DNA from: Candidatus Dormiibacterota bacterium | GTDB taxonomy: Bacteria > Chloroflexota > Dormibacteria > Aeolococcales > Aeolococcaceae | Assembly: GCA_963716365.1 (NCBI GenBank) | Contig: OY970307.1 | Coordinates: 1,551,253 to 1,615,252 of the forward strand | Reading direction: 5' to 3' | DNA: 64,000 bases | Shown: positions 3,568 to 52,613 of the stretch, piece after piece | Layout of the letters: every line of letters starts with the position of its first letter | Numbering within the stretch: the stretch's first letter is position 1 | Notes under the pieces: model-generated | The model's input: the letters and a program-made list of their open reading frames with translations, nothing else | The model's database searches: none | Told to the model about the DNA's origin: nothing | Program-made: the position numbers and the translations under genes

Positions 3568-3588
3568 AGCAAATAGTAAGCCTCCTTG

Positions 3589-3618: not shown

Positions 3619-3656
3619 TACACTCCCCGAGATACCGCCGAGACACGAGGAGGCTG

Positions 3657-4780: not shown

Positions 4781-4799
4781 TCCCCCCTTCCCAACGGCG

Positions 4800-12325: not shown

Positions 12326-12392
12326 AGCAGTGCATCGTAGGGGCATCCCGGCCGATGCGGCTCCTTGACGCCATCCGGGTTTCTTCCGGCGC

Positions 12393-12917: not shown

Positions 12918-13022
12918 CGCAGTGAAGCTTCCTGGCGCGCCCTCACTGCGGACAGTCGCCGGCCGCCCGGACCTCTTGATGCACCCATCCGAAGCCTCTG
13001 GGGGGACCGATTTGGAAGGGTC

Positions 13023-13094
13023 AGCGGGAGACGGGGCTCGAACCCGCAACTTCAACCTTGGGAAGGTTGCACTCTACCATTGAGTTACTCCCGC
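13023..13094 (-). tRNA. tRNA-Gly (anticodon CCC)
   Basis: The minus-strand sequence GCGGGAG-TA-ACTCAATGGTAGAGT-GCAACC-TTCCCAA-GGTTG-AAG-TTGCGGGTTCGAGCCCCG-TCTCCCGC-T forms a cloverleaf with a 7-bp acceptor stem, a CCC anticodon in a 7-nt loop and a TpsiC GTTCGAG box. CCA is not encoded. Confidence 0.85.
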
Positions 13095-13202
13095 GGGTAT
13101 TTGGTCTCTTGGAGTGTTTCCTTTGACAAAGGGGAGTAGTGGATCGATGCCCCAGGCCGGCTGAAACCCTCGGCGAGGGAGCCATCGTAGACCGCTGCAG
13201 CG

Positions 13203-14153
13203 TCATTGCGGAGGCCTCCGCGACAACTCGCCGTCGCGCAGAACCTGCATGAGCCGGTCGTGGGCATCGGCGGGATCCAGGAGGTCGTAGTGGTGACGGA
13301 TCATCGCCTCGCTGCCGTGGCCGAGGATGCGTTCAACCACGATCGTGCTCTGGCCGCTCATGAGCATCCAGTGACACGCGCTGTGGCGGATCACGTTTGG
13401 GCTCACCGCGAACTGAATCCCTGCCTCGAGGGCGAGCGCGCCAACCATCTGACGCACACCAGGGACGGTGAGCACCTCGCGCTCTCCGGTGCGTCGGTCC
13501 CGACGCAGGCCGATGAACACCGGGTCGTCGTCCCCGCCTCGAGCAAGCGAGCGTATGCGAGCGAACATCTCCGGCGTGATCGGCACGTCTCGTTCGTCGA
13601 CCTCACTTCGGACACGCACGAAGTGGCGGAGCCCCTGCACGAGCAGATCGCCGTTGGTGATCGCAACGAGCTCGCCAGATCTCATGCCTGTGTCGGCGAG
13701 CAGCCGGATGATCACGCGGTCGCGTTCAGCCGCGGCGGTGCGCTCCAATAGCGCGATCTGTTGACGATCCAGCGTGTTTACCTTGCGTCCGGCCGGCTGG
13801 TGCAACTCGACCTTCGGCGCCGTGGTCGAGTGTTCCGCGGCGTACCAGCGCATCAGCTGGTTCGCAGCCTTCTTGTACGTCCACATCGTCGCGTCCGACA
13901 ACGGTTTGCCGACGCGGGTTGAGCGGCTGCAGAGGTCGGCGGCGAAGCGTTCCAGGGTGTCTTGGTTGATGCCGGCGGCACTCGCGATACCCTCGCGCTG
14001 ACACCACGGCAGCAACACAGCACGCAACGAGTACCCGTACGAGTGCTTGATGGTGCTGGGTTTCACACCATTCGACAGGCAGTGGACGATGTAGTTCTCG
14101 ATCTCGGTCGCCAGGTCGCTGCGCGGCGCCTTCAGAACCCGGGTTCCGGCCAC
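13203..14153 (-). CDS. tyrosine-type site-specific recombinase / phage integrase
   Basis: 316 aa with a GTG start. The catalytic R...HxxR...H...Y pattern is present (GMRSGEL, RHSACHWM, LGHGS, HHYD). Confidence 0.8.
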   Translation of the reverse strand: MAGTRVLKAPRSDLATEIENYIVHCLSNGVKPSTIKHSYGYSLRAVLLPWCQREGIASAAGINQDTLERFAADLCSRSTRVGKPLSDATMWTYKKAANQLMRWYAAEHSTTAPKVELHQPAGRKVNTLDRQQIALLERTAAAERDRVIIRLLADTGMRSGELVAITNGDLLVQGLRHFVRVRSEVDERDVPITPEMFARIRSLARGGDDDPVFIGLRRDRRTGEREVLTVPGVRQMVGALALEAGIQFAVSPNVIRHSACHWMLMSGQSTIVVERILGHGSEAMIRHHYDLLDPADAHDRLMQVLRDGELSRRPPQ

Positions 14154-14406
14154 AGTGCTCTCCTGACAAGTGAAGAAATGGAATGGAGTGTTCCCTGAGT
14201 ATGCGGATTGCCACGAAGCAACAGCCTCGAGGAACTCCGCTCCAAAGGCTCCTTTCCTTCCTGCATTCGCCGGCGGTTCTCTGGTGCACTCGTCGGGAAG
14301 GGCATCATCAACGCGCGACGGACATTCGGCGATTGCCTCGCAGCGGCTTCAATGTCGTCGATGTGCTGCTCGTTTCGTTGCAGCGGCTCTGACATCATCA
14401 CACTGC

Positions 14407-14850
14407 ATGGACGCATTCCGAAACGACGTCGACGAGTTCTGCGACGGGACTACCAACGACCTCGCGTCGTTCGCCGTGCCCAGCGCCGACGTTGATCAGG
14501 CGTCGTTCGATGTCGCGAGCTCACGGATATCCACTCTCTGTCAGAGGCTCGCGGTGGGAGCGGCCTTCGCGCGCTGGAGTGACTTGCCGGAGCGCGACCG
14601 GGTACTCGACATCGCGCGGAATGACCCTCCCGCGCTGACCGAGGAGTCGCCGCGACACGTCTGGGAAGCGCTCGCAACGATCATCGGTTGGGATGCCTAT
14701 GACGAGGTCCCATTGAGCCAGAACCGCCAGGCTGCAGCTCATCTTGCCAACGAACTTCGGTCACGACTGGTCGCCGACAAGGAGGGGACGCTCGCGGCGA
14801 TCGTCCCGCCGTGGTCGACGGGGTACTCACTCAATCCGGTCCGCCGCTAG
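14407..14850 (+). CDS. hypothetical protein (possible island cargo)
   Basis: An ATG start (MDAFRNDVDEF...) lies inside a longer 14170 ORF. The region upstream of it has lower GC than the surroundings. No recognisable domain. Confidence 0.35.
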   Translation: MDAFRNDVDEFCDGTTNDLASFAVPSADVDQASFDVASSRISTLCQRLAVGAAFARWSDLPERDRVLDIARNDPPALTEESPRHVWEALATIIGWDAYDEVPLSQNRQAAAHLANELRSRLVADKEGTLAAIVPPWSTGYSLNPVRR

Positions 14851-14906
14851 CCCGGTCGTGACCTGGTCGTCACGATAGGCCCGGCGACCCGGGGCATGAT
14901 GCAGCG

Positions 14907-16007
14907 GTGATCAGGCTTCGACCGGACGCACGACGCCTTCGAATCGGCGTCGTATTCGCCGGCGCGCTCCTCATCCTCACCGCCTGCAGCGGACCCGCTG
15001 CCCAGGCTGTTCCGACGCCCGCGGGTGGTGGCGTCCTCGGAGCTCTCCCCCATCTTCCGGGACCGCCGACGCCGGCGCCGGCCACCGCAAATGCGACCGC
15101 CGAAGCGCGGTTGACGCTCGCGCCAACGCACCACAGCGCATCGCCGACCCACGCCCCGACGCCGCAGGCCACGTCGCTCACGAAGATCGGTGGCTGTCAG
15201 GTATTCCCGCCCAACAACCCGTGGAACGAGAACATCTCGAAGCTCCCGGTGAATCCCAACTCGGCGGAGTACATCGCCAGCATCGACTCAACGAAGCAAT
15301 TCCTGCATCCGGACTTTGGCTCGGATCCGACGTACGGCATCCCATACACCGTGGTGCCGAAGTCACAGCCCTTCGTCCCGATCACGTTCACTGCCTACGG
15401 CGACGAGAGCAACCCCGGGCCGTATCCCGTTCCCCTGAACGCGCCGGTGGAGTCGGGCAGCGATCGTCACGTGCTCGTCGTCGACAGCGGCAACTGTCAT
15501 CTCTACGAGATGTATGACGCACAGCAGGTCGGCGCAGGATGGGAGTGCGCGTCCGGCGCCGTCTTCAACCTCAACAGCAACGCGCTCCGCCCCGAGGGGT
15601 GGACGTCAGCGGACGCGGCGGGACTGCCGATCCTGCCCGGCCTTGCGCTGTACAGCGAAGTGGCCGCGGGCGCCATCGATCACGCGTTGCGGTTCACCGT
15701 CCAGGACTCGCAGAACGGGTGGATCAGCCCCGCGACGCACGAGGCCGGTTCGGCCAATCCAGGGTTGCCACCGATGGGACTCCGGCTCCGCCTCAAAGCG
15801 TCGTTCAGCCTCGCGGGATTCCACGGCGAAGCGCTCATCATCCTCACCGCGCTGAAGACGTACGGCATGATCGTTGCCGACAACGGCAGCAGCTGGTACA
15901 TCAGCGGTGACACCGATCCGCGCTGGAACGACAACGATCTCGATCAACTGAAGACCGTTCCGGGCAGCGCGTTCGAAGCAGTCGAGACGGGTCCGATCCA
16001 GCACTGA
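14907..16007 (+). CDS. secreted lipoprotein, unknown function
   Basis: Signal peptide with lipobox LTAC at residues 23-26, a Pro/Ala-rich linker, then a roughly 270-aa domain I cannot assign. Confidence 0.6.
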   Translation: MIRLRPDARRLRIGVVFAGALLILTACSGPAAQAVPTPAGGGVLGALPHLPGPPTPAPATANATAEARLTLAPTHHSASPTHAPTPQATSLTKIGGCQVFPPNNPWNENISKLPVNPNSAEYIASIDSTKQFLHPDFGSDPTYGIPYTVVPKSQPFVPITFTAYGDESNPGPYPVPLNAPVESGSDRHVLVVDSGNCHLYEMYDAQQVGAGWECASGAVFNLNSNALRPEGWTSADAAGLPILPGLALYSEVAAGAIDHALRFTVQDSQNGWISPATHEAGSANPGLPPMGLRLRLKASFSLAGFHGEALIILTALKTYGMIVADNGSSWYISGDTDPRWNDNDLDQLKTVPGSAFEAVETGPIQH

Positions 16008-16014
16008 CCGCGGG

Positions 16015-17463
16015 TCAGCGCGATGCTGCAGTCAACTCCACGACGGGGTACTTACCGGCGGCGTAGTCGGCACGGATGACTTTCTTGTCGAGCTTGCCCA
16101 CGCTCGTTTTCGGCAGCTCATCGACAAACGCCCAGCGCTCCGGCAACCACCAGCGCGCGACCTTCGGCGCCAGGAACTCGCGCAACTCCTCCGGCGTTGC
16201 GGATTTGCCCTGCTTGAGCACCACAGTCGCCAACGGGCGCTCGGCCCAACGCTCATCCGGGACGCCGACGACAGCCGCGTCCGCCACCGCCGGGTGACCC
16301 ACGAGCAAGGTCTCCAGCTCCACCGACGAGATCCACTCCCCACCGGACTTGATCACGTCCTTCGAGCGATCGGTGATCTGCACGAAGCCGCGCTCATCGA
16401 TGTTGCCGACGTCTCCGGTGCGCAGCCACCCGTCGTGGAATTTCTCCGGCGCTTCGGTGTTGTAGTACGAGCCGGTGATCCACGGCCCGCGCACCTCGAT
16501 CTCGCCGACAGCCTCACCGTCATGCGGCACCACCGCACCGGCGTCATCGACGATGCGCAACTCGACACCCGGGACCGCCTTACCGGTCTTGCCGCGGTAG
16601 TGCATCTCGTCCTCGGGCGCCGTGTCCTTGGGTGGAAGCGCGATCGTCGCGATGGGGCTCGTCTCTGTCATCCCCCATGCCTGCCACAGCTCGATGCCGA
16701 GCACGTCCTTGTACGCGGCAATGAGCGACGACGGCACAGCGGAACCGCCGCACACCGCTGTTTTGATGCTCGACACATCCCCACCGTTGGCCTGCACGTG
16801 GTTCAGCAGCGCGGTGAGGATCGTCGGCACACCACCGGTGAACGTCGGCCGCTCCTGCGTGATGAAGTCGCAGAGCCCCTGCGGCTGCAGGAATCGTCCG
16901 GGCAACAGCAGATCGCTGCCGACCAGCCAGCCCGCGTAGGGCGTCCCCCACGCGTTGACGTGGAACATCGGCACGATGATGAGCAGGCGCCCGTTGTCAT
17001 CGAGGCGGAATGTCGCCCATACCGCGAACGAATGCAGATACACCGAGCGATGGCTGTACGCAACGCCTTTCGGATCGCCGGTGGTCCCGGTCGTGTAGCA
17101 CATGGACGCCGCGCTGCGTTCGTCGATGGCAGGCCAGCCGAACGTCGGCGACTCAGCCGCAAGCAGCGTCTCGTAGGCGAGCGTGTCGCCGAGTCCCGAC
17201 GCCTCCCCGGAACCGACGACGATCACCTTCTCGACGCTCGGGCAATTCCCGATCACCGACGCCAGCAAGGGCGCGAGCGAGTCATCGACGATGACGACCT
17301 TGTCCTGCGCATGGTTGATGATCTGCGCGAGCTGCGGCGGTGGGAGGCGCAGGTTGAGCGTGTGCAGCACGGCCCCCATACAGGGGATCGCGAGGTACGC
17401 CTCCATGTGCTCCTGGTGGTTCCAGCAGAGCGTCCCGAACTCGGTCGCCAGGCCCAACGCCAA
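16015..17463 (-). CDS. long-chain fatty-acid--CoA ligase (AMP-dependent synthetase, FadD family); the main ORF lacks its N-terminus because of a frameshift
   Basis: [35 protein letters not shown] (AMP motif), [21 protein letters not shown] and a C-terminal VGKLDKK. The true N-terminus (MNSTMQDLQLSITEIF...GDRV) lies in another frame at 17282..17635. Confidence 0.75.
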
Positions 17464-17635
17464 GCGTCCGCAGCGCGCCGGCGAGGCGGTTCACCCGCTC
17501 CGCAACCTTCGCGTAGCTGGTGTGCCTGGCCCGCTCGCCCTCGAAGGTGATGATCTCGCTGTCCGGGTACAGCTCAGCCCCGTGGCGAAAGATCTCCGTG
17601 ATGCTGAGTTGCAAGTCCTGCATCGTCGAGTTCAT
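17282..17635 (-). pseudogene. N-terminal fragment of the same fatty-acid--CoA ligase, out of frame with 16015..17463 (frameshift near 17436-17441)
   Basis: Frame A reads ...[12 protein letters not shown] and frame B reads [10 protein letters not shown]. Both match consecutive conserved FadD blocks, separated by one extra C in ...gagttCggg... Confidence 0.5.
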
Positions 17636-17772
17636 GGGCTCCACACTCCTCTGCACGATCTTGCCGCTCACCGGTCACCAACCCGAGGCTCCCAGATCGC
17701 CGAGATCGTAGCGAGCATTCGGGACCTTGTGCAGCATCCGCGTCGCAAGGCCGCTTCGCTACCCTCGATGGT

Positions 17773-18831
17773 ATGACCGTGACCCGAACCGGATCGATGA
17801 CCGGCGCCGAGCTCATGCTCGCCACCGCCCGTCGCGAACCGGCCGACCGCACGCCGATCTGGTTCATGCGACAGGCCGGACGCTGCCTCGCCGGCTACCG
17901 CAAGCTGCGCGAGAGCTACGACATCCTCACGATCACGCGCACCCCCGAGCTCTGCGCGCAGGTGACGCTCATGCCGGTTTCGGAGTTCGGTGTCGACGCC
18001 GCCGTCATGTACGCCGACATCATGTTGCCGCTGACGGGGATGGGCGTTCCCTTCTCCATCGACCCCGGCATCGGCCCGATCATCCACGCCCCTGTGCGGA
18101 GCGCCGACGACGTCAACGCGCTCCGCATCGTCGACCCGCACGAGTCGACGCCCGAGCTGTACGAGGCGATTCGCCTGGTGCGCAAGGAACTTGACGGCAC
18201 GACCGCCGTGGTCGGGTTTGCCGGCGGGCCGTTCACCGTCGCCTCGTACATGATCGAGGGCAAGCCCACCAAGGAATTCTCGAAGACCAAGGCGATGCTC
18301 CACGGCGAGCCGGAGCTCTGGCATCGGCTCATGTCGACGCTCACCGAGGTGACGATCAGCTACCTGCTCGCGCAGGTCGAGGCCGGCGCCCAGATGATCC
18401 AGCTCTTCGACTCGTGGGCTGGAGCGCTCTCCGTTGCCGCCTACGAGGCATCGGTCCTCCCCTACAGCCGCCGTATCCTCGAGGCAGTGGCGACGACGGG
18501 GGTACCGACGATCCACTTCGGGACGACGACGTCGCACCTCCTCGAATCGATGGCGAGCGCAGGCTCGGACGTGATCAGCGTGGACTGGCGGCTGCCGCTC
18601 GACGAGGCCTGGCGCCGGATCGGCGACCGCGCCATCCAGGGCAACCTCGATCCGGGCGTCATGCTCGCCCCCTTCGACGTCATCGCGAGGGAGGCTCGGC
18701 TGATCCTGGCCCAGGCGAACGGCCGTCCCGGCCACATCTTCAACCTCGGGCACGGCGTTCTCCCCGAGACATCGAGCGACGACCTGAAGCGCCTCGCCGA
18801 ACTGGTCCATTCAGAGACTGCCCGAGCCTGA
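17773..18831 (+). CDS. hemE: uroporphyrinogen decarboxylase
   Basis: PIWFMRQAGR signature and full-length URO-D fold motifs (GFAGGPFT, LFDSWAG). Confidence 0.9.
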   Translation: MTVTRTGSMTGAELMLATARREPADRTPIWFMRQAGRCLAGYRKLRESYDILTITRTPELCAQVTLMPVSEFGVDAAVMYADIMLPLTGMGVPFSIDPGIGPIIHAPVRSADDVNALRIVDPHESTPELYEAIRLVRKELDGTTAVVGFAGGPFTVASYMIEGKPTKEFSKTKAMLHGEPELWHRLMSTLTEVTISYLLAQVEAGAQMIQLFDSWAGALSVAAYEASVLPYSRRILEAVATTGVPTIHFGTTTSHLLESMASAGSDVISVDWRLPLDEAWRRIGDRAIQGNLDPGVMLAPFDVIAREARLILAQANGRPGHIFNLGHGVLPETSSDDLKRLAELVHSETARA

Positions 18832-18871
18832 CCGGAGCCGGACGCCTGAGGCCGCGCTATACCCTTGGCGC

Positions 18872-41518: not shown

Positions 41519-44032
41519 CTACTCCGAGCCGGCAGAAATCGCCTCCACAACCGCGTGGACACCGTTGGAACCTTCGGCCTCACGCACCTGCGCCAGGTAC
41601 TCGTCGACAAGCTCACGCCCGCGCTGCGGATCGGCAACACTCGCGACCACGTGATACGCGGGCTCGTCGGGATCCGGCCGCACCAGCACGAATCCCCCGT
41701 CGACGTACACCTTGATCCCATCGACAAGGTCGACCGAGTCGGTCCGGTGCCGGTCGAGCAGGATGCGCATGACGCGGCCCTTCACCTCCCACGGGCAGAA
41801 CTCCGTCGCGGTGACATACGCAAGGTGCGGCAGCGCAGCGCGCGCCTCACTCAACGGAACCCCAACCAGCGCTCGCAACTCGAGCAACTTCACCAGCGTG
41901 TACATGGCGTCGAAGGCACCGAGGTGTCCCGGCCACACGAAGCCACCATCGCCGTCGGACGCAAGGATCGTGCCGGCATTGGCGGACGCGCGCAGCACTG
42001 ACGCCGGGTCACCCGCTGTCGAGGCGAACGTCCCCCCGCCCTGGCTCACCACGTCGCTGATCCACATCGGCGTGGCCGCAGGCGCGAGCACCGTCCCCGC
42101 ACCGGAACGCAACAACCAGGACGCGAGAATGCCGAAGCTCTCGTGCACATCCATCACCACGCCGGTGTCGTCGATGAGCGTGATCCGCTCCCCCGTCGGG
42201 CTGATCATGCAGCCGATGTCAGCACGAACCGTCTTGCTGATGAGCGCGGTCTCGTCGGGCACGGTGCGGTGGTGCGCACCCTCGCGCAGCCCCGCGTTGA
42301 GCGGGATGGTCGTCACCCCGAGCCGATTGAGGATGCCCGGCAGCACCTCCGACGCATCGCTGTAGTCGTAGTCGATGAGCACCCGGAAGCCCGCATTGCG
42401 AATGAGGTCGGCGTTCACACTCTTCAACAGATGCGCGGAGTACGCGGCAATCGGCTCGCTGTACTCGATGTCGCCCATCTCGTAGAACGCAGCCCGCCGG
42501 AAGTCCTCGCGGAACAGCAGGTTCTCGAGCTTGCGCTCATCGCGCTTGTCGATCTGCAGCCCCTCGGTGTCGAAGAAACGGATGTCGGCGCTGCGCTGAT
42601 CGAGCGGTGACACGAGCACGTGAATCCCCGCTGCGCAATCGGCGTCGAGCGTTGCGAACTGCGTCACCGCGACCGGCAACTCGCGAACGTCGCGAGCCTT
42701 GCCACCGGCACTGACGATGCCGGAGACGATCGCGCGCTTGATCATTCGCGACGAGCGCGCATGGTCCCGTCCGACCACGACGCACGCGCCCTTCGGCAAC
42801 GTCGCGCCGAACGCGGCGCCAAGTCTGGCGCAGAACTCCGGCGTCAGCTCGACGTTGATGAGGCCGCCGAGCCCGTACGACGAGAACAGTCCCTGACGCC
42901 ACTCGCCAGCCCAGATGATCGACTCGTTGACCGTCGACCCCGGCTCCACGCTCTTGCTCGGCCAGACCTTGACGCCGGCGCGGATCTGCGTCCCCTTGCC
43001 GAGCACGCACTCGTCGGCGACCACCGAGTTCTCCTCGAGCAGGCAGTCGTTCTTGATGGTGACGTTGCGGCAGACGATCGCCTGACGCAACCTCGCGCGC
43101 TCGCCGATGTACGAGTGCGTCCAGACGATGCTGTTGCTGATCTTCGTGTTGTCGTCGACAACGCTGTACTTGTCGATGACAGCGTGCTCATTGAGGATCG
43201 CGCCTGCCTTGAGCTTCACCTCGTCACCGATGAAGGCTGGTCCGTCGAGCTGCACGCCGATGCCGATCTCGACGCCCTCCCCCATCCAGACGTTGCCCTC
43301 GCGGCGCCCCGGGATGTGGCAGCGCACCTTGCCGTCGAGCGCATCCCAGTTGGCCTGCAGGTACGACTGGATCGAGCCGATGTCCGTCCAGTAGTCGTCC
43401 ACGACGATGCCGTGGAGCGGCTCGTGGCGGCGCAGCATGGTCGGGAACACGTCCTGCGACCAGTCGGCGTTGGTGTCGGCCTTGATGTGGTCGAGCACCT
43501 TCGGCTCGATGACATAGATGCCGGTGTTGGCGTGGTCACTGAAGACCTCGCCCCATGACGGCTTCTCGAGGAAGCGCTTGATGTTGCCCTCGTCGTCGGT
43601 GACGACGACCCCGTACTCGAGTGGATTCGGCACCGAGTGCAGCACGATCGTCGCGTGCGAACCGCGGTCCTTGTGCGCGGTCATCACCTTCGTCAGGTCG
43701 ATGTCCGTGAGCGCGTCGCCGCTGATGACGAGAAACGTGTCGTCGAGCAGGTGCGCCGCGTTGCGCACGCTTCCCGCGGTGCCGAGCGGCCGGTCCTCGA
43801 CGACGTACTCGATCTCCATGTCGAGGTCGGAACCGTCACCGAGGCGGTTGCGAATTTCCGCACCGAGATAGGCCAGCGTGACCACCACCTGGGTGATGCC
43901 GTGCTCGCGCAGCAGGCGAAGGATGTGCTCGAGAACGGGCGTGCCCAGCACGGGTACGAGTGGCTTGGGCATGCGGCTGGTGAGCGGGCGCAGACGCGCG
44001 CCTTCGCCTCCTGCCATGACCACTGCCTTCAC
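41519..44032 (-). CDS. bifunctional sugar-1-phosphate nucleotidylyltransferase (mannose-1-phosphate guanylyltransferase-like, with a left-handed beta-helix) fused to a phosphoglucomutase/phosphomannomutase-family domain
   Basis: The N-terminus has [13 protein letters not shown] (the GxGxRL NTP-transferase motif), then hexapeptide repeats. The C-terminal roughly 450 aa have the four-domain PGM/PMM architecture. The canonical TASHNP phosphoserine loop is not evident ([11 protein letters not shown]). Confidence 0.8.
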
Positions 44033-44090: not shown

Positions 44091-45392
44091 TCACGTGGGC
44101 GGCGCGGATCCGGCCGTCGGCGGCACCACGCGTTGGTGCAGGGACATGAAGCGAAGACGCTCGAGCAGGCCCGCGATCACAAGCGGCCACGCGAAGTCCG
44201 CCGCATCACGGCGCGCCGCAACACGAAGGCGTTCGCCGAGCGCCGGTTGCTCCACGAGGCCACGAAGCGCGCTCGCCATCTCCGCCGGGTCGTCGGTCTC
44301 CACCACGATCGCGTTGCCATACGGGCGGGCATACTCCTCGCCCGTCGCACCCACCATGGCGATCCCGCCGGCCGCCATCGCCTCGAGACCAACCAGGCCG
44401 AACGGCTCGTGCCCCGAGTTGGCGAGAACGGCAGTCGCGGCAACGTTGATCTCTGTGATGACCTGGTCGGGCAGAAACCGGCGCAGGTGCACGATCGGCG
44501 CGCCGTCGGTTTCCGTCAGTGCGCGCACGATGCCGCCCGCATCCTCCACCGGCTCGTGCCAGTCGGTCACCGCGAGCCCGCACTTCGCGGCAAACGAGAG
44601 CACGGTGCCGCCATACGGCTCCATCCCGCCACGGATGAGCATCCGCGCCGGCAATCCCTCGACGCGCACCTCGGCGATGGCGGCGATCGCCTGCGTCCAG
44701 CGTTTGTCGGGGCTGAAGCGGCCGATCTTGAACGCCAGGCACGGTGTTCCCGCCGCCGCCCGGATCGCCTTCGCTGCCGACATGTCGACCGGTGCGAGCG
44801 CTCCCTCCGGGATCCCGTTGGGGATGACCACCGGGTTGACGTCATACGGCCACATCAGATGCTTCATGTACTTGCTGACTGTCGTGATCGCCGCGACGAA
44901 GTCGAGGATCGGCCAGTCGATCGCGCCAAAACCGAAGGTGTTGTTGGCGTTCCAGAGCAGGACTGCGTGCTTGCGCAGGTCGAACTCATACAGGCGATCG
45001 CTCAGGGACTTGCAGAACCACGCGGTGTGCCACTCCTCGCAGAGCACCGCGACAGTGCGGCCGGCCTCCGCGGCCGGACGGACGATCTCGTCGATCAGCT
45101 TGTCGGGTAGCGTCGCTGTGAGATCGCGGATCTTCGCCAGCTCACCTTCGTAGACGCCGTTGCGATAGCGAGCACTGATCTGCTGACACCAGCGCACCAG
45201 CTGGACGCCCTGGTCCATCTCCATGCCCGGCTTGTCGGGATCGCCGACGAAGACGAGCGTGGTGCGAAAGCCGAGCGCGGCAAAGGCGCGGCACATCTCA
45301 CGAGCGCGCACACCAAGGCCGCCGGCCTGGCTGTACTGGTCGGGTCCTTCGAAGGACACCATGACGACGTCGAGGGTTTCAGGCGTGAACAT
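44091..45392 (-). CDS. glycosyltransferase family 4 (GT-B, retaining; PimA/sucrose-phosphate-synthase-like)
   Basis: 433 aa with a GT4 C-terminal domain and the E-x7-E region (SGHEPFGLVGLEAMAAG). Confidence 0.8.
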   Translation of the reverse strand: MFTPETLDVVMVSFEGPDQYSQAGGLGVRAREMCRAFAALGFRTTLVFVGDPDKPGMEMDQGVQLVRWCQQISARYRNGVYEGELAKIRDLTATLPDKLIDEIVRPAAEAGRTVAVLCEEWHTAWFCKSLSDRLYEFDLRKHAVLLWNANNTFGFGAIDWPILDFVAAITTVSKYMKHLMWPYDVNPVVIPNGIPEGALAPVDMSAAKAIRAAAGTPCLAFKIGRFSPDKRWTQAIAAIAEVRVEGLPARMLIRGGMEPYGGTVLSFAAKCGLAVTDWHEPVEDAGGIVRALTETDGAPIVHLRRFLPDQVITEINVAATAVLANSGHEPFGLVGLEAMAAGGIAMVGATGEEYARPYGNAIVVETDDPAEMASALRGLVEQPALGERLRVAARRDAADFAWPLVIAGLLERLRFMSLHQRVVPPTAGSAPPT

Positions 45393-45486: not shown

Positions 45487-45502
45487 CGGGGGCCGAAGCC
45501 CC
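45487..45502 (-). terminator. GC hairpin GGGGGC-cgaa-GCCCCC downstream of the amidohydrolase operon (candidate terminator, no U-tract)
   Basis: A perfect 6-bp GC stem with a tetraloop in the 240-nt gap between the 45635 gene and GT4. Coordinates are +/-1. Confidence 0.25.
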
Positions 45503-45634
45503 CAATCCTGGTCACAAAAGAGGCGAAGGACCGGCTGGCGGGCGCCGGTGACTCCGCCCGAATGAAGTGTGCCAAACGCTCTGAACGTAGCCTCCGATGC
45601 TGGGACACAGACGTGTAACGGGAGGGGCACGGTG

Positions 45635-46465
45635 TCACAGACCAAACAGCCGCACGGCGTTCTCGCCCATCACGAGGTCGCGCTCGGCGACCGTGAGCTC
45701 AGCCTGCGCGAACGCGTCGATGTAGCGTTGCGCCGGCAGCAGCGGATGGTCAGACCCGAAGAGCAGCCGATCCGCGCCGCAGAGATCGGCCACCGCGCGA
45801 TATGCCGTCGGCGCGTAGAGGAACGGCCCGGCGGCCGTGTCGAACCAGAGGCGGCGGCAAAGTGCTGCCACCTCGGGCATGTGCGCGTAGAACGGGAGTC
45901 CCCCGCCGAGATGGGCACACACCAGGCGCAGGTCAGGGTTGCGCAACGCGAATCCGGCGACGTGCCCGGGCGTGGCAGTCCCCTTGCCCGGATACTCGTG
46001 ACCCACCGGCTCGCTGCAGTGCAACACCATCGGAATCCCGAGGTCGACGCACGTTTGCGCCACCGAATCGATGCCGTCGCTATCGAGGTCGAATCCCTGG
46101 GCGTCGGCGTTGAGCTCGCCGACGCCGCGCAGCCCCTCGCCGGCGCACCGACGCAGCTCCTCTACCGCCCCGGGCCGCGCCGGGCTCACCGTCGCGAAAC
46201 ACGTGAGCCGGTCGGCATGGGCCTGCTGCACCGCGATCAGATGCTCGTTCACCTCCGCGCAATGCGCTGGATCCGCGAATGGCCATCCGAAGCACACGGA
46301 GCGGTCGATTCCCGTGGCGTCCATGGTCGCCAGCAGCTCCTGGGCCGTCAGGATCACCCGCCCGCCGCGATGGCAGAGGTCGAACCATGCATCGGCATTC
46401 GCAAGCTCGTCGCGCGCGTCGCGCATGCTCGCCGGAAGGATGTGCACGTGGCTGTCGACGATCAC
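45635..46465 (-). CDS. amidohydrolase-2 family (TIM-barrel metal-dependent hydrolase)
   Basis: GTG 46465 is preceded by GGGAGG. The protein has the DSHVHI metal-binding start and internal His/Asp ligands (HCSEP, CAHLGGG, GSDHP). The 469-aa ORF-track version is an N-terminal over-extension. Confidence 0.7.
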   Translation of the reverse strand: MIVDSHVHILPASMRDARDELANADAWFDLCHRGGRVILTAQELLATMDATGIDRSVCFGWPFADPAHCAEVNEHLIAVQQAHADRLTCFATVSPARPGAVEELRRCAGEGLRGVGELNADAQGFDLDSDGIDSVAQTCVDLGIPMVLHCSEPVGHEYPGKGTATPGHVAGFALRNPDLRLVCAHLGGGLPFYAHMPEVAALCRRLWFDTAAGPFLYAPTAYRAVADLCGADRLLFGSDHPLLPAQRYIDAFAQAELTVAERDLVMGENAVRLFGL

Positions 46466-47571
46466 CCGAGCCACCTCCCCTGCGCGAAGATCCACGTTCC
46501 CGCGCACATCAAGACGCCGCTGGCGACCAGGATCGCCGGTCGAGCTCGCGCGAATCGTGCGGTGAGGTCCGCCACGAGGATCACCGCTGGGAAGAGGGCA
46601 AGGATGTAGCGCGGTTGCGAGCGCCAGAACGGCAGCGATGCAGTCATCAACCAGGCGATGGTGCAGTACAGCGCGAAGGATCGGGGGATCCGTGATGAGG
46701 CCCACATCCCGAAGCACAGCAACAGTCCGAGGAGCCCACAGGCCACTTCGCGCGCAAAGATCGACCGCGTCTCCCCATCGGAAGCACTGATCAGCGTGTG
46801 CCAGGTCGCGGCGAATCCGGTCCACGGCGGCGTCGGCTGGAGGCCGAAGGAGGGCGATCTGTCGGCATCCAGCAGGGCGCGCACGTCGCCGATGTGGACC
46901 TGCATGTAGAGGGAGTACAGCGCGAGCGGCAGCAGCAGCGCGAGCACGAGCAACAGATCCGGACGCGGGCGCCAACCGCTCCGGCGCAGCTGCTCGATGG
47001 CAAGCGCGGGGATGAGCGCGAGCCCCGTGAGCCGGAACGCGCACGCCAGCGCGCCGGCGACGATCGCCTTGCGCGACTGTCCGGCGCGCGCGTAGTACAG
47101 GCTCGCCGCTGCAGAGGCGATGAACGTGCTCTCACTGAACGGCGCGATGAGGAAGAGCGCGGTCGGCGCGAGTGCGACCAACCACATCGAGAACGTCGCC
47201 GATGCCTGGTCGCGCTCGGCGCGCACCAATCGAAAGAGATACCAGAGCCCCACCGTCTCCGCTACTGCGTTGACCAACCATGAAGCCGTGACATCGTCGC
47301 GGGTGATGAACGCGACCCCCTTCACGAGCAACGGAAACCCCGGCAGGAATGCGTCGATGTAACTGAGGTGCGCCGGATAGCCGTTGGCGGCGATCGACAG
47401 ATAGCTGACCGCGTCCCACGCCGCCAGGTGGTCGTGCAGGAAGGTGAACAGCGGCACTCCCGGGAAGTCGAGGACCAGCACGGCGACGAACACGACGAGC
47501 CAGAGCACCCGCGACACCAGGACCGCCGCCAGGGCAGTCCCCCACGGCGACGCTGAGGCCCGTGTGCTCAC
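46462..47571 (-). CDS. polytopic membrane protein, DUF2029/GT87-like putative mannosyltransferase
   Basis: 369 aa with about 9 TM segments and conserved loop residues resembling the PIG-V / GT87 / DUF2029 family. It has 4-nt overlaps with both neighbours. Confidence 0.5.
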   Translation of the reverse strand: MSTRASASPWGTALAAVLVSRVLWLVVFVAVLVLDFPGVPLFTFLHDHLAAWDAVSYLSIAANGYPAHLSYIDAFLPGFPLLVKGVAFITRDDVTASWLVNAVAETVGLWYLFRLVRAERDQASATFSMWLVALAPTALFLIAPFSESTFIASAAASLYYARAGQSRKAIVAGALACAFRLTGLALIPALAIEQLRRSGWRPRPDLLLVLALLLPLALYSLYMQVHIGDVRALLDADRSPSFGLQPTPPWTGFAATWHTLISASDGETRSIFAREVACGLLGLLLCFGMWASSRIPRSFALYCTIAWLMTASLPFWRSQPRYILALFPAVILVADLTARFARARPAILVASGVLMCAGTWIFAQGRWLG

Positions 47572-48323
47572 GCCGGCGGATCGAGCCCGTCGAGCAGATC
47601 GGGATGCGTGCGCAGTTGCCAGAGCTCGCGGAACGCGCGCACCACAACGCTCACGTTGGCGCCGGTCGCGCGGCCGGTCGTGCGCGGGTAGTGATGGACG
47701 CCGACATCCATGAGGCGGTATCCGCTTCGCCGCGCACGCACCAGGAGCTCGGTGCAGACGAGCGCCCCCTCGGAGTGCAAGCCCTGACCGACCGCTCGAG
47801 GAAACAGCTTGAACGCGCAGTTCACATCGCGCACCGTGGGCCCGAAGAGCAGACGGACGAGGCCGAAGAACGCGCTGTGATACGCACGGCGCAGGAACGT
47901 GTCGTTGCGCCGGATGCGGAAGCCGGACACCACCTTGTCGGGCGCGTACAGCGCGAGCAAACGCGAGATCTCGGTGGGATCGAACTGGCCGTCACTGTCC
48001 ATGTGGAACACCGCCTCGCACGTCGCGGCGTCGAACCCGGTGCGCAGGGCGGCACCGTAGCCGCGGTTGCGCGGGTGCGACACCACCCGCACTCGCCTGC
48101 CGGGCACCGCTGCACTCTCGGCGCGCGCCGCGGTGGCATCGCTGCTCCCGTCATCGATGACGAGGATCTCGAAGTCAGTGATGCCGAGCGCCGCGATGGC
48201 ATCGCCGGTTCGCTGGACGGTCTCGGCGATCACCGCCTCCTCGTTGAACGCGGGAAGCACCGCGCTGATCGAGGGTTGCGCGCGCGCAAGGGACTTGCGG
48301 CCGGGCACCTCAGCTTCTTCCAC
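47568..48323 (-). CDS. GT2 polyprenol-phosphate mannose (or glucose) synthase, DPM1/Ppm1-like
   Basis: SAVLPAFNEE, VIDDGSSD, the DxD motif (FHMDSDGQ) and DVNCAFKLF. The start is one of two GTGs (48308 or 48323). Confidence 0.75.
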   Translation of the reverse strand: MEEAEVPGRKSLARAQPSISAVLPAFNEEAVIAETVQRTGDAIAALGITDFEILVIDDGSSDATAARAESAAVPGRRVRVVSHPRNRGYGAALRTGFDAATCEAVFHMDSDGQFDPTEISRLLALYAPDKVVSGFRIRRNDTFLRRAYHSAFFGLVRLLFGPTVRDVNCAFKLFPRAVGQGLHSEGALVCTELLVRARRSGYRLMDVGVHHYPRTTGRATGANVSVVVRAFRELWQLRTHPDLLDGLDPPA

Positions 48324-50529
48324 GCACGTCGTAGATGATGATGTGATCGGTACGCGCCACGACCGGAAAGCCCTGTTCCGACCACCAGGTGAACCCCGGC
48401 TTTGATTCCACCGCGCCGGGGTCCGAGGTCCGGTTGTCAATCTCGACGTAGCTGATGTCGTACTTGTGCAGCAGCGCGAAGACCGGGCACGTCGCGGCGG
48501 TATCCGTGCACCCCGAGTACATCGCCTGAACATCCGCGTAGCGGGTGCCGATGTCGATGCCGTAGCTCCAGAGCCAGCCCCCATACCCCATGACGCCGAT
48601 GCGACCGGCAACAGCGAGTACAGGGTCGTTGGGACGGCCGAAGGTGAGGAACACGGCGCCCTTCGGCGTCGTCTTCTCGAGCGTCGATGCCAGTTGCACT
48701 TCCTGGGCATTGGCGATCGTGTACGGCCCGGTGATCGCATCCGCCGGCGGCGTCCAGGGCAACAGCCGCAGGACCACAAGCGCGCCGGTGAAGAGCACCG
48801 GACCGACGAGCGCGATGGCGGCGATCCGCGGCCACACCCGCCGCCACCAGTGCGCTGCGAGCGCCCCGACGAGCAGCGCCATGACGAGGTACCAGTAGAC
48901 GAGCAGCTTGGTGTTGTCCCAGTTCCAGGTCTGGAAGACCACGAGGTTGCACGCGGCGAAGATGATCAGTCCGCCCAATGCGAGTTCGAGCAGCGGCACC
49001 GGGAACGCCGCGGTCACGGCGCGCCCCGCGCGCGCCAATTCCCCGCCGGCGCGCCGAGCCAGCATCGCCAGCGCAACGAAGGCGAGGAGCGGCACCGCGA
49101 TCCCGAGGTTGGCGAGCCAGAAGCCCCACCACTGCGCGGTCCCCACCATCCCGATCGCCTGGATCGCCCCGCCGACAAAGTTCCCGACGGACATCTCGAG
49201 ACGACCGCTCGGATCGGCGGTCGTCCCCGCGTTGGAGAGCCACCCCGGTTCGATCCATGGATAGACGTTGGTGCCGTATGGATTCACCGACGAGCCGTGC
49301 GCCGTCAGCGCGAGCTGGGCCAGACGAACCCCGCCGATGAGCATCGCGACGCCGGCGAGCGCGAGCCACTCCCGTCGCCGCCGTCGCCAGAGCAGCACGA
49401 ACAGCAGGATGGAGAGCGCGATAAGCGTCTGCACGTGGACGATCGGCAGGAGGCCGACCAGCACGCCCGCGAGCACGAACGCCTCCCAGCTCCTGCCCCC
49501 CGACGACGCGCCCGAGAGGACAAGCAGCAGCACGCTGATCGCCGCCGCGAAGCCGAAGAGCAGCGTTCGCTGGGGCAGCCACCACGCCATGAGCGGCGTG
49601 TACCACTGCATGTTCGGGAGCGGCGCGGTGCCGCCGTCGGACGGCAGGCCGTCGTAGGCGCGCGGCTGCGCGGCGATCGTGCCGGGCAGGTCGTGGAGCG
49701 TCCAGCCGATGATCGAGAGCCCCGTGCCGGGGTGAGTCACGACGTACTGGAAGGTGCACTGCGTGGCGGTGTAGCCATGGTTCGTGCAGGCGTCAGCAAA
49801 AACCCCGATGAAGCCGAGGCCCCCGCCGATGAAGCAGATGAGCACGGCGATGACCCCGGCACCGACGCCGAGCCCGAGACGGCGCCCAAGCGCGACGACG
49901 AGCATCCCGATCACCACCATGAGCACCGCGCCCGGGATGGCCAGGGCCAGCCCGGGTGACAGGCCGAGCGTGATCAGCGTGGCCGCGTGAAAGTCCGGAA
50001 GAAACGGATAGAGGAGCGTCGTCCCGCTGAACAGCGGGTTGATCGGCGGGATGTTGCCGCCCATCGCGAAGCTCGCGGCGGTCGTGAGGTGCTGTGACCA
50101 GTCGGCCCAGACCGTCGGGTAGCCTGCTTCGAGCCCGCCCGAGTCCGTGTAGACCGTATGCGCGAAGATTGCGGTGACCGCCGCCCCGCCCACGGCCAGC
50201 GCGATGATGGAGAGCCAGGGCGTCTGCTGGGCCCAGCGGTCCCGGGATTCGACCCATGAGGCGTACCAGGTCGACCGGGGATCGACTGTTAACAACGACG
50301 CCGCAAGCGCCCCCGCGAGCGCGATGAGCGGCCCCTCCAGCACGGTTGCGGTGCTCAGCCCGAAGACCAGCGAGAGGCCGTAGGTCACCCCGGAGGCGAC
50401 CAGCACCCCGGTGATCACGCCGATGAGCCCGCGCTCCATGAGCGTCAGGTGGGTGCGGATCAACCCGGTCAGCGCGGCCCCGGCAGCGAGCGTCAGGGCA
50501 GCGTCAAGGATGACGAGGAACGCGGTCAC
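48310..50529 (-). CDS. large GT-C fold integral membrane glycosyltransferase (ArnT/PMT_2-like), putative
   Basis: 739 aa, 13 or more TM segments. The C-terminal soluble domain (GRPNDPVLAVAGRIGVMGYGGWLWSYG...YDISYVEID) resembles the ArnT/GT39-type C-terminus. It overlaps PMT by 4 nt (GTGA). Confidence 0.5.
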   Translation of the reverse strand: MTAFLVILDAALTLAAGAALTGLIRTHLTLMERGLIGVITGVLVASGVTYGLSLVFGLSTATVLEGPLIALAGALAASLLTVDPRSTWYASWVESRDRWAQQTPWLSIIALAVGGAAVTAIFAHTVYTDSGGLEAGYPTVWADWSQHLTTAASFAMGGNIPPINPLFSGTTLLYPFLPDFHAATLITLGLSPGLALAIPGAVLMVVIGMLVVALGRRLGLGVGAGVIAVLICFIGGGLGFIGVFADACTNHGYTATQCTFQYVVTHPGTGLSIIGWTLHDLPGTIAAQPRAYDGLPSDGGTAPLPNMQWYTPLMAWWLPQRTLLFGFAAAISVLLLVLSGASSGGRSWEAFVLAGVLVGLLPIVHVQTLIALSILLFVLLWRRRRREWLALAGVAMLIGGVRLAQLALTAHGSSVNPYGTNVYPWIEPGWLSNAGTTADPSGRLEMSVGNFVGGAIQAIGMVGTAQWWGFWLANLGIAVPLLAFVALAMLARRAGGELARAGRAVTAAFPVPLLELALGGLIIFAACNLVVFQTWNWDNTKLLVYWYLVMALLVGALAAHWWRRVWPRIAAIALVGPVLFTGALVVLRLLPWTPPADAITGPYTIANAQEVQLASTLEKTTPKGAVFLTFGRPNDPVLAVAGRIGVMGYGGWLWSYGIDIGTRYADVQAMYSGCTDTAATCPVFALLHKYDISYVEIDNRTSDPGAVESKPGFTWWSEQGFPVVARTDHIIIYDVRGRS

Positions 50530-52472
50530 CCGATGTCGACCCAGAGCCTCGTTTGCTGGTCAGCGGGACTCTGTGGCATCGCCGTCCAGATTGGATAGAA
50601 GAAGATGAACGCGGCAAGCACGGCGCCGATCACAGCAAAGCTGACAGGCGCGAGCGACACCTGTCTCCCGCGGAACGGGACACGCAATCGCCGTATCGCC
50701 GTCAGCGCGTACGCAAGCGCAAGCGCTGTGAACAGCAGCATGCCAAGCGCGTGGTAGAAGAAGAGCACGCGGCGCTCGTTGCCCGGCACCCACATCATCC
50801 ACGACGCGAAATAGCCGAGCACGATGAACGCCGGCACGAAGCGTCGCGAGATGACCGCGGACAGGGTCACCAAGCCTGCGTAGATGATGACGCCGACGAA
50901 CGCAACCGCGAACCAGATACCCGGATACGTTCGCGCGATCTCGTACTGCGACGACGGTTCCATGTGGAATTTCGTGATGAACTGCGCCGCCGTGTAGGAC
51001 GTGTTGAAGTTGTTGGGGTCGTGGAAACGCACCGCGGCCTGGTAGATGATCATCATCGCCACGAGCGAGATCAGCCCGATCATCGGGACCAGCAGTCGCC
51101 ACCAGTTCGGGCCGCGCGTCACCTGCCAGACGCAGAACAGCAGCGCGAGGATGCCGAGCCACCAGATCGCCGGATTGCCCATGTCGGTGATCTCCGCGAC
51201 CTGGCCCTGCGTCCCTGCTGAGCTCGCGTAAAAGAGCACCGGATGCTCCATGATCGGCCACGTCAGCCAGAGCGACGAGTAGGGATGGCTGTGGCATTCC
51301 TCGGCGTGATAGCGGAGTGACGCGGCGTTGATCTGGATGATGTTGTCGACGGCTTCGACCGGGTTGGGGACGGTGAGTGGACCGACCTTCATCACTGGCA
51401 CATCAAGGGTTTTCTCGGTTCCCGGCAGCCCCGCGACCGCTGGATTGCACCCGTTGAAGAAGTACACATCCGTGTGCTGGATCGTCTCGTAGCGTGAGAA
51501 GCACGCGAAGAAGATCGCGACCGCCACGATGCCGGCGACGAAGTAGTGGAGCACGGCCTTCGGACCCGCCGCGTTGCGCCACATGATCGTCTCGGCGCGC
51601 CCCGGTCCGGCGATGCGCCGCAACCACGGCACGAATGCCGCGATGTACGGCGAGAGCCCTCGGGCGATGATCAGCCCGGCCGCCACCACGAGCGGTGCGA
51701 GCGCGGTGAGCTTCGCCCCGAAGGCGAGGCCCGCGACGCCGGCCATCACGTACAGGGTCGTCCGCCACTGCGCGCGTGTTCGCGCCTGCCAATGTAATAA
51801 GAAGACGTAATAGAAGAGCGCGACGAAGAAGATCGCGATGATGTCGATGACGCCGGTTCGTGACTCGACGAAGGCGAGTCCGTCGAAGCAGATGAACAAT
51901 GCCGTCGTGATCGCGAAGAATCGATTGCGACGCAGGCGCAGCGCGACGAGATACATCATCCCGACGAGCAGGCTGCCGAAGAGCGTCGTGCTCAGTCGCC
52001 AGGTCCAGCTGTTGAAGCCGAAGAACGCGATTGGCGGCGCCATCAGCAACTTCGCAAGCGGCGGTTCAGGATCGAAATACGACTCGGCCGGTTGTCGCAA
52101 GTCCTTCGCGGCGTCCACGGGGAAGTAGATCTCGTCGAAGACGTAGCCGCAGACGTTGATGTCGACGTGATTCACCTTCACACCGCCGACGACGCCCGCT
52201 TTTCCCACCGGTACCGTCGTGCACTCCGCGCCCGATCCGCTCGTCGTCGGGTAGCCGACGCCGTAGGCGTTGAGCGTCCCGGTGCCGCTCAGGAAGTCCG
52301 GCAAGATCGGGCTCGCGAAGCGCAGACCGAAGGCCAGAACCACCAGGGCGATCACGGCGATCACGTCGAATCTGCCCAGGTCGAGGAAGCCTCGCAGGCC
52401 GGCGCGGACGAGCGGCGGACCGCCGTCCGACTCCGGTCCGGGAGACTCGGGAGTGACTACTTCGCTTGACAT
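50526..52472 (-). CDS. pmt: protein O-mannosyltransferase (GT39, dolichyl/polyprenyl-phosphate-mannose--protein mannosyltransferase)
   Basis: 648 aa. Loop-1 VFDEIYFPVDA matches the PMT DE motif (FDEVHF). Multi-TM, with large extracytoplasmic loops. Confidence 0.75.
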   Translation of the reverse strand: MSSEVVTPESPGPESDGGPPLVRAGLRGFLDLGRFDVIAVIALVVLAFGLRFASPILPDFLSGTGTLNAYGVGYPTTSGSGAECTTVPVGKAGVVGGVKVNHVDINVCGYVFDEIYFPVDAAKDLRQPAESYFDPEPPLAKLLMAPPIAFFGFNSWTWRLSTTLFGSLLVGMMYLVALRLRRNRFFAITTALFICFDGLAFVESRTGVIDIIAIFFVALFYYVFLLHWQARTRAQWRTTLYVMAGVAGLAFGAKLTALAPLVVAAGLIIARGLSPYIAAFVPWLRRIAGPGRAETIMWRNAAGPKAVLHYFVAGIVAVAIFFACFSRYETIQHTDVYFFNGCNPAVAGLPGTEKTLDVPVMKVGPLTVPNPVEAVDNIIQINAASLRYHAEECHSHPYSSLWLTWPIMEHPVLFYASSAGTQGQVAEITDMGNPAIWWLGILALLFCVWQVTRGPNWWRLLVPMIGLISLVAMMIIYQAAVRFHDPNNFNTSYTAAQFITKFHMEPSSQYEIARTYPGIWFAVAFVGVIIYAGLVTLSAVISRRFVPAFIVLGYFASWMMWVPGNERRVLFFYHALGMLLFTALALAYALTAIRRLRVPFRGRQVSLAPVSFAVIGAVLAAFIFFYPIWTAMPQSPADQQTRLWVDIG

Positions 52473-52582
52473 CTATTTACAAGAATTGGAGGTTCCTTTA
52501 CTGCTATCCTGAGAGGCGAGCAGTACAGTCAAGGCCGCAGGCGTTGCGCCGCGCATATCTGAAACTCATTCCCTTCCTGAAA

Positions 52583-52613
52583 GGCCGGAGGGTTCCCCCT
52601 CCGGTCTTTTTTT
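52583..52613 (+). terminator. intrinsic terminator GGCCGGAGGG-ttcc-CCCTCCGG followed by T7; A-tract on the other side (possibly bidirectional)
   Basis: Perfect 8-bp GC stem plus tcttttttt, lying 13 nt beyond the glpK stop in a lower-GC 150-nt gap. Confidence 0.6.

Follow-up and report, generated by a model that had tools for sequence, protein, structure and literature searches.

Which pathway is served by five consecutive, closely packed genes at positions 45635-52472 of a 64-kb window (the whole stretch of DNA analysed here, from contig OY970307.1 of the genome of an uncultured soil bacterium of the Candidatus Dormibacterota)? The first-pass annotation of the window had described these genes as a translationally coupled operon with 2 large membrane glycosyltransferases of the GT-C type, a polyprenol-phosphate-mannose (Ppm) synthase, a GT87-like membrane protein and an amidohydrolase, and, by comparison with mycobacteria, had suggested a lipomannan-like pathway or one for glycoprotein mannosylation. 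We found five consecutive minus-strand open reading frames at these positions, and observed identities for their products at the level of family or fold, overlapping junctions between them, and patterns of conservation among related genomes. On balance we lean towards the view that the five genes form an extracytoplasmic glycosylation pathway which acts on a polyprenyl-phosphate-linked sugar and is built around the protein O-mannosyltransferase (PMT) encoded by the first gene, with the product of the second gene, here called GT-C2, either extending O-mannose or modifying other protein sites. The five genes, from upstream to downstream, are as follows (aa, amino acids).

50526-52472, minus strand: gene 1, PMT, 648 aa
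48310-50529, minus strand: gene 2, GT-C2, 739 aa
47568-48323, minus strand: gene 3, GT2 glycosyltransferase, 251 aa (246 aa with the start at GTG 48308)
46462-47571, minus strand: gene 4, putative PIG-V/Gpi18-like membrane protein, 369 aa
45635-46465, minus strand: gene 5, amidohydrolase, 276 aa

The PMT and its partner GT-C2

By its sequence, gene 1 is a GT39 protein O-mannosyltransferase, as had been annotated from its FDEIYF motif. Both Pfam models for such enzymes exceeded their cut-offs: PF02366, the N-terminal PMT domain, with 43.9 bits against 22.7, and PF16192 (PMT_4TMC, the C-terminal region of four transmembrane (TM) segments) with 53.4 bits against 32.4. Hydrophobic segments mark the product as a multi-pass membrane protein. 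The first extracytoplasmic loop carries the DE motif, VFDEIYF at residues 111-117 (FDEIYF at 112-117), in which the pair D113-E114 is kept in at least 97% of 72 sequences. Transfer of mannose to Ser/Thr residues is predicted.

GT-C2 gave no match in Pfam, NCBIfam or PDB sequences, whether as a single sequence or as a profile, and no above-threshold profile match to GT39, GT66, GT83, GT53, GT87, GT98 or DUF2298; its relatives appeared only as sub-threshold matches to DUF2298, Dpy19 and DUF6798. Because sequence searches found nothing, its classification rests on the predicted fold. The AlphaFold model, built from 20 homologues (predicted TM-score, pTM, 0.74; predicted local distance difference test, pLDDT, 71.5), shows approximately 14 TM segments followed by a 150-aa extracytoplasmic C-terminal domain. 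The multi-pass membrane core superimposes on solved GT-C enzymes, the nearest in fold being DPY19, STT3/PglB and Pmt4, and the C-terminal domain of the predicted model resembles the core unit of AglB. As modelled, GT-C2 is thus a GT-C fold glycosyltransferase of an uncharacterised family, in agreement with the annotation of a second large GT-C enzyme. Membership of the GT-C proteins in Emb-like families, which would have spoken against the annotation, was not observed; in Foldseek comparisons of GT-C2, Emb, Aft and PimE were mid- or low-ranking fold matches only.

Several residues of GT-C2 are invariant in its family, namely D143 and H147 (motif WxDWxxH), Q320-R321 (PQR) and K541 (WDNTK). D179, of the YPFLxDF motif, is near-invariant (at least 90% in the wide family), and a GYxGWLWSYG motif in the C-terminal domain is widely conserved, with near-invariance for G651 only. 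The loops that carry the invariant polar residues contain almost no Lys or Arg, and two of them have paired Cys, while the intervening short loops are Arg-rich. Because of this distribution of charges, the positive-inside rule predicts that the conserved residues face the outside of the cell, as expected for a GT-C enzyme with a lipid-linked donor. D143 and D179 themselves lie in the putative catalytic loop, 65 residues long and free of Lys and Arg, whose pLDDT is below 50.

The ranking of fold matches bears on what GT-C2 acts upon. The top full-length Foldseek matches were the C-mannosyltransferase DPY19 (E 1e-6) and STT3/PglB (E between 1e-6 and 1e-4); PMTs ranked far lower. Possibly, then, GT-C2 is a protein glycosyltransferase of the DPY19/STT3 type that modifies another residue or motif than the PMT does, so that the 2 proteins would be parallel enzymes on one donor pool and not initiator and elongator. 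With DPY19 (GT98) and STT3/AglB/PglB (GT66) it shares the architecture of a GT-C membrane core plus an extracytoplasmic C-terminal domain; its GYxGWLWSYG motif recalls the WWDYG of oligosaccharyltransferases, and one family member gave a sub-threshold match to the Dpy19 model of Pfam. However, the TM-scores of the fold matches were low (0.3-0.45), no sequence relationship to GT66 or GT98 was detected, and neither the WWDYG nor the DK/MI motif occurs as such: WLWSYG has no counterpart to the Asp of WWDYG, and is approximately 65 residues into the domain instead of straight behind the final TM helix. We regard this parallel arrangement as quite improbable.

Conservation of the pair within and beyond the phylum

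Close homologues all came from metagenome-assembled genomes of Candidatus Dormibacterota, a few of which carry other automatic labels. We compared nine proteins of the window by tblastn with 81 related loci, and observed that the PMT and GT-C2 genes are adjacent, in this order, in every Dormibacterota locus that covers both. Of the loci long enough to include it, nearly all have the amidohydrolase gene next, even where identity in GT-C2 has fallen to 42-45%. The GT2 gene was found in the clade of the window and in a few other lineages only, and the PIG-V-like gene was found with or without it; approximately 22 loci have PMT, GT-C2 and amidohydrolase alone. The phylum-wide core is the PMT, GT-C2 and amidohydrolase genes, and the GT2 and PIG-V-like genes are accessory and clade-specific. 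The earlier picture of the amidohydrolase as an odd appendage is reversed by these observations: within the phylum it accompanies the PMT and GT-C2 far more consistently than do GT2 and gene 4.

The GT-C2 family extends well past the phylum. A profile search of 1.84 billion proteins recovered 3,188 cluster representatives (clusters defined at 50% identity) at E<=1e-3, and 755 at E<=1e-30. Ten members that were scanned had no Pfam family above threshold, save for an unrelated fused acyltransferase domain in one of them, and the scanned members have the same motifs as GT-C2 (WxDWxxH, YPFLxDF, PQR, WDNTK and GYxGWLWSYG). Gene context was examined for ten distant members, which share 24-35% identity and come from loci with a GC content of 33-74%. 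Nine of them had usable context; the contig of P0496 was too short to judge. A PMT or PMT_2 gene lies no more than two genes away in six of the nine. For P0440, P0404, P0391 and P0384 the immediate neighbour scores above threshold with both PMT models; P0420 and a PMT_2 gene overlap; and P0410 has a PMT two genes away, inside a cluster of GT-C genes. P0461 is followed by an adjacent GT2 gene, and P0470, P0430 and P0480 showed no PMT in the available sequence. The surroundings of P0470 (L089, positions 1-5990) include genes for a UbiA prenyltransferase, a PHP phosphatase, an epimerase, LPG_synthase_TM and PTPS_related, a set which recalls lipid-linked pentose/hexose donor pathways.

Because six of the nine distant loci pair with a PMT and none of those looked up has an Amidohydro_2 gene, the PMT and GT-C2 pairing appears to be old and widespread, and the amidohydrolase an addition made in Dormibacterota. 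The taxonomic spread behind this statement was judged from GC content and gene content of the loci only.

Gene junctions

Stop and start codons overlap in a GTGA sequence, read directly in the window, at 50526-50529, 47568-47571 and 46462-46465. Of the overlaps of 4 to 14 nucleotides (nt) described earlier, those at these three junctions are present, and the fourth is ambiguous: at the GT-C2/GT2 junction, a start at GTG 48323 gives a 14-nt overlap, and an alternative start at GTG 48308, which is preceded by GGAAGAAGCTGAGG, is 1 nt past the GT-C2 stop. A start 1 nt beyond the stop is available in approximately 45 related genomes, and in the more distant relatives L001, L038 and L060 this junction is a 4-nt overlap.

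Among the 81 related loci, the PMT/GT-C2 junction is -4 in most, and the junction of gene 4 with the amidohydrolase gene is -4 wherever both genes were scored. Of 24 loci that miss both GT2 and gene 4, 22 have the amidohydrolase start between -17 and +46 nt relative to the stop of GT-C2; the exceptions are L055 (+106) and L063 (+1302). Overlapping or abutting junctions recur in more than 60 species-level genomes. Because they are conserved across the 81 loci, junction overlap exceeds what chance would give. Where overlapping or abutting stop and start codons on one strand, kept among relatives, are taken as the mark of translational coupling, these genes carry it, and the tight coupling noted in the first pass is borne out.

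The GT2 and PIG-V-like enzymes

Gene 3 matches Glycos_transf_2 of Pfam (PF00535, E 4e-28) and, among PDB sequences, ArnC (4e-20), GtrB (1e-10) and PfDPMS, the dolichyl-phosphate-mannose synthase of Pyrococcus (4e-9). Its DxD motif, D109-S-D111, is conserved, and no TM segment was found, as for a soluble GT2. By these matches it belongs to the polyprenyl-phosphate-sugar synthase class of GT2 enzymes (ArnC/GtrB/DPMS), with the sugar unproven. The class that was implied by its annotation as a Ppm synthase therefore stands, without the specificity for mannose: PgfS and ArnC were the top names in NCBIfam, PpgS and dolichyl-phosphate hexose transferase were also matched, and all of these scores are below cut-off.

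For gene 4, the GT87/DUF2029-like assignment has to be replaced, as there was no match to PF09594 at E<=0.01. The best candidate is PF04188 (PIG-V), with 19.4 bits just under its cut-off of 22.4; a PMT_2 match was also sub-threshold. Of the 120 orthologues listed, most have PF04188 as a precomputed match, and the sources of several name them 'Gpi18-like mannosyltransferase' or PIG-V. Gene 4 thus probably encodes a PIG-V/Gpi18-like (GT76-like) membrane glycosyltransferase.

Neighbouring sugar genes and a lipoglycan alternative

Downstream of the five genes are 2 further genes.

44091-45392, minus strand: GT4 glycosyltransferase, 433 aa (Pfam Glycos_transf_1 and Glyco_transf_4), syntenic across most of the phylum
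41519-44032, minus strand: sugar-1-phosphate nucleotidyltransferase/phosphohexomutase fusion, 837 aa (Pfam NTP_transferase and PGM_PMM I/II)

The best NCBIfam match of the 837-aa fusion is mannose-1-phosphate guanylyltransferase, with 261 bits against a cut-off of 440. It also has an LbH domain, archaeal-type GlmM is among its best scores (below cut-off), and it is kept beside the GT4 gene in most related Dormibacterota loci. Of the flanking genes that had been annotated, the GT4 is supported by Pfam, and the gene for GDP-mannose synthesis has this sub-threshold match; the fusion probably supplies GDP-mannose. Some relatives have extra genes between the amidohydrolase and GT4 genes, and L006 and L020 have approximately 3 kb of inserted sequence there. 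In L001 (positions 11933-20048) there are GH77 and alpha-amylase-family genes resembling the MalQ/TreX/TreY/TreZ trehalose-glycogen set, the GH77 start overlapping the amidohydrolase stop.

Such surroundings could also suit the synthesis of a lipoglycan or cell-wall polysaccharide instead of glycoproteins, in which GT-C2 and the PIG-V-like enzyme would polymerise a lipid-anchored mannan or add branches to it, while the PMT would be incidental or act on the mannan too. Gene 4 is related to the glycosylphosphatidylinositol (GPI) mannosyltransferases, the operon is flanked by GT4 and sugar-nucleotide genes, and distant member P0470 is beside UbiA, epimerase and PHP phosphatase genes typical of lipid-linked sugar pathways. 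Yet only one partner is met repeatedly across phyla, a bona fide GT39 whose DE motif is intact, and the established acceptors of GT39 enzymes are proteins only. Foldseek also places the peptide-acceptor enzymes DPY19, STT3 and PglB above the arabinosyl- and mannosyltransferases of lipoglycans, and no PimA/PimB/PimE-type genes for phosphatidylinositol mannosides were identified here. Dormibacterota are not known to produce lipomannan or lipoarabinomannan, which we also count against this alternative. The analogy with mycobacterial lipomannan drawn in the first pass has no direct support, because the host belongs to the Dormibacterota and is not an actinobacterium; the GT87 match on which it leaned was not found. 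We consider a lipoglycan product unlikely, and continue with protein glycosylation as the favoured reading.

The amidohydrolase

Gene 5 is an amidohydrolase, as had been annotated: it belongs to Amidohydro_2 (PF04909, COG2159) and its model has the TIM-barrel fold, with HxH, His and Asp metal ligands intact. H6, H8, H149, H185 and D239 are invariant in a 19-sequence alignment (A3). No TM segment and no apparent signal peptide were seen, as for a cytoplasmic protein. The predicted structure is confident (pLDDT 92), and the nearest structures are LigW, IDCase, ACMSD-type decarboxylases and related lactonases; these neighbours, found with the model, do not reveal the substrate. Our best guess is that the enzyme processes or recycles a cytoplasmic sugar-derived intermediate. 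ArnD-like editing of a lipid-linked sugar was set aside, as the fold differs and the gene persists where the operon has no GT2.

Operon boundaries and a conserved hairpin element

The five genes are bracketed by 2 hairpins.

52585-52604, minus strand: GC-rich hairpin CCGGAGGG-GGAA-CCCTCCGG, read from the sequence, directly past the stop of the upstream FGGY-kinase gene
45513-45558, minus strand: two-tier hairpin GGCGGAG-NNN-CCGGC-GCCCGCCA-GCCGG-TC-CTTCGCC followed by TCTTTTGTG (T-run), 77 nt past the amidohydrolase stop

The upstream hairpin, which was not called by a consensus terminator scan, likely marks the upstream boundary of the operon; this function is inferred. A TTGACT hexamer is located at 52527-52532. 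Inside the operon, a consensus scanner called no promoters, and terminators at a chance-level number. As part of the protein-mannosylation reading, we regard it as somewhat more plausible than not that the five genes form a single transcription unit. Given a genome of 66% GC, the leader before the PMT start (52473-52530, minus strand, TAAAGGAACCTCCAATTCTTGTAAATAGATG) has an unusually high AT content, and no clear GGAGG Shine-Dalgarno sequence was seen in it near the ATG.

The downstream hairpin is part of a wider conserved block (45507-45625). It contains a near-invariant 27-nt motif, GCGGAG-NNN-CCGGCGCCCGCCAGCCGG, of which the window has one copy against 0 expected by chance. The element is specific to Dormibacterota. 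It was found as a single copy in 63 of the 81 loci of the phylum and in each of 74 metagenome stretches, and is kept even where the flanking proteins are only approximately 50% identical. In its outer stem all seven pairs are retained (7/7), with G.U-compatible changes only, and the diverged copy of L069 has a compensatory inner stem (AGAGC/GCTCT). RNAalifold reported no compensatory pairs, because the core of the element is invariant, and no Rfam family matched it. Boxes GTNAC-N4-CNGT and CA(G/C)ACT are conserved upstream.

The usual position of the element is past the amidohydrolase gene and 80-150 nt ahead of GT4, and it stays with GT4 in several loci in which other genes are inserted; in six genome loci and 2 metagenome stretches it is inverted. 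In form it is like an intrinsic terminator, and it marks the 3' end of the operon, the GT4 leader, or both. Candidate identities for it are a small RNA, a leader or attenuator that acts on the genes for GT4 and the nucleotidyltransferase, or a terminator which has gained a further function. We set aside 2 others, a dif-like recombination site and a small open reading frame, in view of the G.U-only variation in the stem and the invariance at every position, including would-be wobble positions.

A second hairpin, GGGGGC-TTCG-GCCCCC (45488-45503, minus strand), closely follows the T-run on its downstream side; all 24 loci examined in the close clade (GT-C2 identity >=77%) have it in essentially identical form, one copy being a base shorter. 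For the complete 200-nt spacer, the folding energy is approximately -90 to -100 kcal/mol, a figure without shuffle control. Elsewhere in the window, the sole Rfam or ARAGORN match is a tRNA-Gly (CCC) at 13023-13094, minus strand.

Proposed pathway

As we infer it, down to the choice of sugar and acceptors, the sequence in which the enzymes act and whatever part the amidohydrolase plays, the pathway would run as follows. A nucleotide sugar, probably GDP-mannose from the neighbouring nucleotidyltransferase/mutase fusion, would serve the soluble GT2 in charging polyprenyl phosphate at the inner face of the membrane, and the lipid-linked sugar would be flipped to the outer face. There it would be passed by the GT39 PMT to Ser/Thr residues on exported proteins. 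The same type of donor would be used on the outer face by GT-C2 and the PIG-V-like enzyme, whose conserved residues are predicted to point outward, and these enzymes would either lengthen the O-linked glycan or glycosylate further protein sites. The PMT and GT-C2 would be an ancient functional pair, to which GT2 and the PIG-V-like gene were added in particular clades, with the Amidohydro_2 enzyme as a Dormibacterota-specific and translationally coupled member.

A number of observations weigh against this pathway. The GT-C2 model has only moderate confidence (pLDDT 71.5) and is poor in the putative catalytic loop. The nearest named families of the GT2 are PgfS and ArnC, neither a mannose synthase, with every match far below the family cut-off. 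Also, GT2 is absent from the operon in approximately 40 of the 81 related loci, and the donor synthase must therefore be encoded elsewhere there. The remaining points concern the amidohydrolase, which the distant GT-C2 loci all lack, and which in L001 overlaps the downstream GH77 gene as well. NadA, FGGY kinase, GT4 and the nucleotidyltransferase fusion are also syntenic in the phylum, and because the whole neighbourhood is syntenic, adjacency of the amidohydrolase gene is weaker evidence of a shared function.

These last points are also those which would be expected if the amidohydrolase, and possibly other members, were passengers engaged in unrelated small-molecule metabolism and co-transcribed as a result of a compact, conserved gene order: flanking genes as unrelated as NadA and FGGY kinase are no less syntenic, the overlap in L001 is with a GH77/trehalose gene set, and the structural neighbours are aromatic-acid decarboxylases and lactonases without a known role in glycosylation. 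Against a passenger, the amidohydrolase start overlaps or abuts the preceding gene, whether PIG-V-like or GT-C2, in nearly all loci; the gene is kept down to the 42-45% level of GT-C2 identity while GT2 and gene 4 vary; and the hairpin with the T-run comes after the amidohydrolase gene, not before it. Passenger status is, to our minds, plausible, although less likely than not.

Comparison with known systems

The favoured protein-glycosylation pathway is a variant of the Pmt/Ppm1 system of protein O-mannosylation known from Actinobacteria (Rv1002c of M. tuberculosis; SCO3154 and SCO1423 of S. coelicolor). The PMTs share the DE motif in loop 1 and the PMT_4TMC domain, the GT2 enzymes are both of the DPM1/Ppm1 type free of TM segments, and both systems imply a lipid-linked donor used outside the membrane. 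In contrast to the actinobacterial genes, those described here are one translationally coupled operon, in a different phylum, with 2 GT-C enzymes and an amidohydrolase in addition; and the PMT is only a distant relative of the equivalog in Actinobacteria, scoring 72 bits with NCBIfam NF058602 (cut-off 800).

In layout the operon is similar to the Pgf system of Streptococcus mutans, which glycosylates surface proteins by means of the GT2 PgfS, the GT-C enzymes PgfM1 and PgfM2 and the epimerase PgfE. Both combine a GtrB/ArnC-like GT2, at least 2 GT-C membrane glycosyltransferases and one soluble enzyme (the sugar-modifying PgfE in Pgf). PgfS is the top NCBIfam match of the GT2, yet at 79 bits against a cut-off of 500. 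In place of a soluble epimerase the present operon has an Amidohydro_2 protein, and it includes a true GT39. A looser likeness is to the Arn pathway (ArnC GT2, then ArnD deformylase, then ArnT GT-C), in which ArnC is the closest solved relative of our GT2 and the logic is that of a lipid-sugar synthase, an editing hydrolase on the cytoplasmic face and a GT-C transferase; the role which this would suggest for the amidohydrolase is unsupported, as described above.

A search of the literature returned nothing on a PMT and GT-C2 pairing, on an operon of PMT and amidohydrolase, or on PMT in Patescibacteria. The new features of the present system are the fusion of the pathway into one operon in a barely studied phylum, the recurrent partnership of a GT39 enzyme with an uncharacterised GT-C family, and the coupled Amidohydro_2 gene.

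Significance

Protein O-mannosylation in bacteria has been studied almost only in Actinobacteria. Dormibacterota are an abundant soil phylum with few or no known cultured members, and the operon would provide a first view of their envelope glycosylation. The enzymes that elongate the bacterial (actinobacterial) O-mannose are stated to be unknown (PMC11727336). GT-C2 is a concrete candidate for extending the first mannose, from a large family (approximately 3,200 clusters) that is tied to GT39 genes in loci from 33% to 74% GC.

More tentatively, and with a good deal of doubt, the PMT and GT-C2 may be an unrecognised two-enzyme module for protein glycosylation that is found across several phyla. 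GT-C2 would then be a new GT-C family with an architecture like that of DPY19/STT3. It would be the missing O-mannose elongase or else another protein glycosyltransferase, one that recognises an acceptor motif of its own and conceivably carries out C- or N-mannosylation. An Amidohydro_2 enzyme would have been added to the module in Dormibacterota, for a step unprecedented in glycosylation. If the amidohydrolase does take part, it would be a new kind of enzyme in such pathways. With its donor synthase, initiator and candidate elongators in one compact operon, the locus would be a convenient cassette for heterologous reconstitution.

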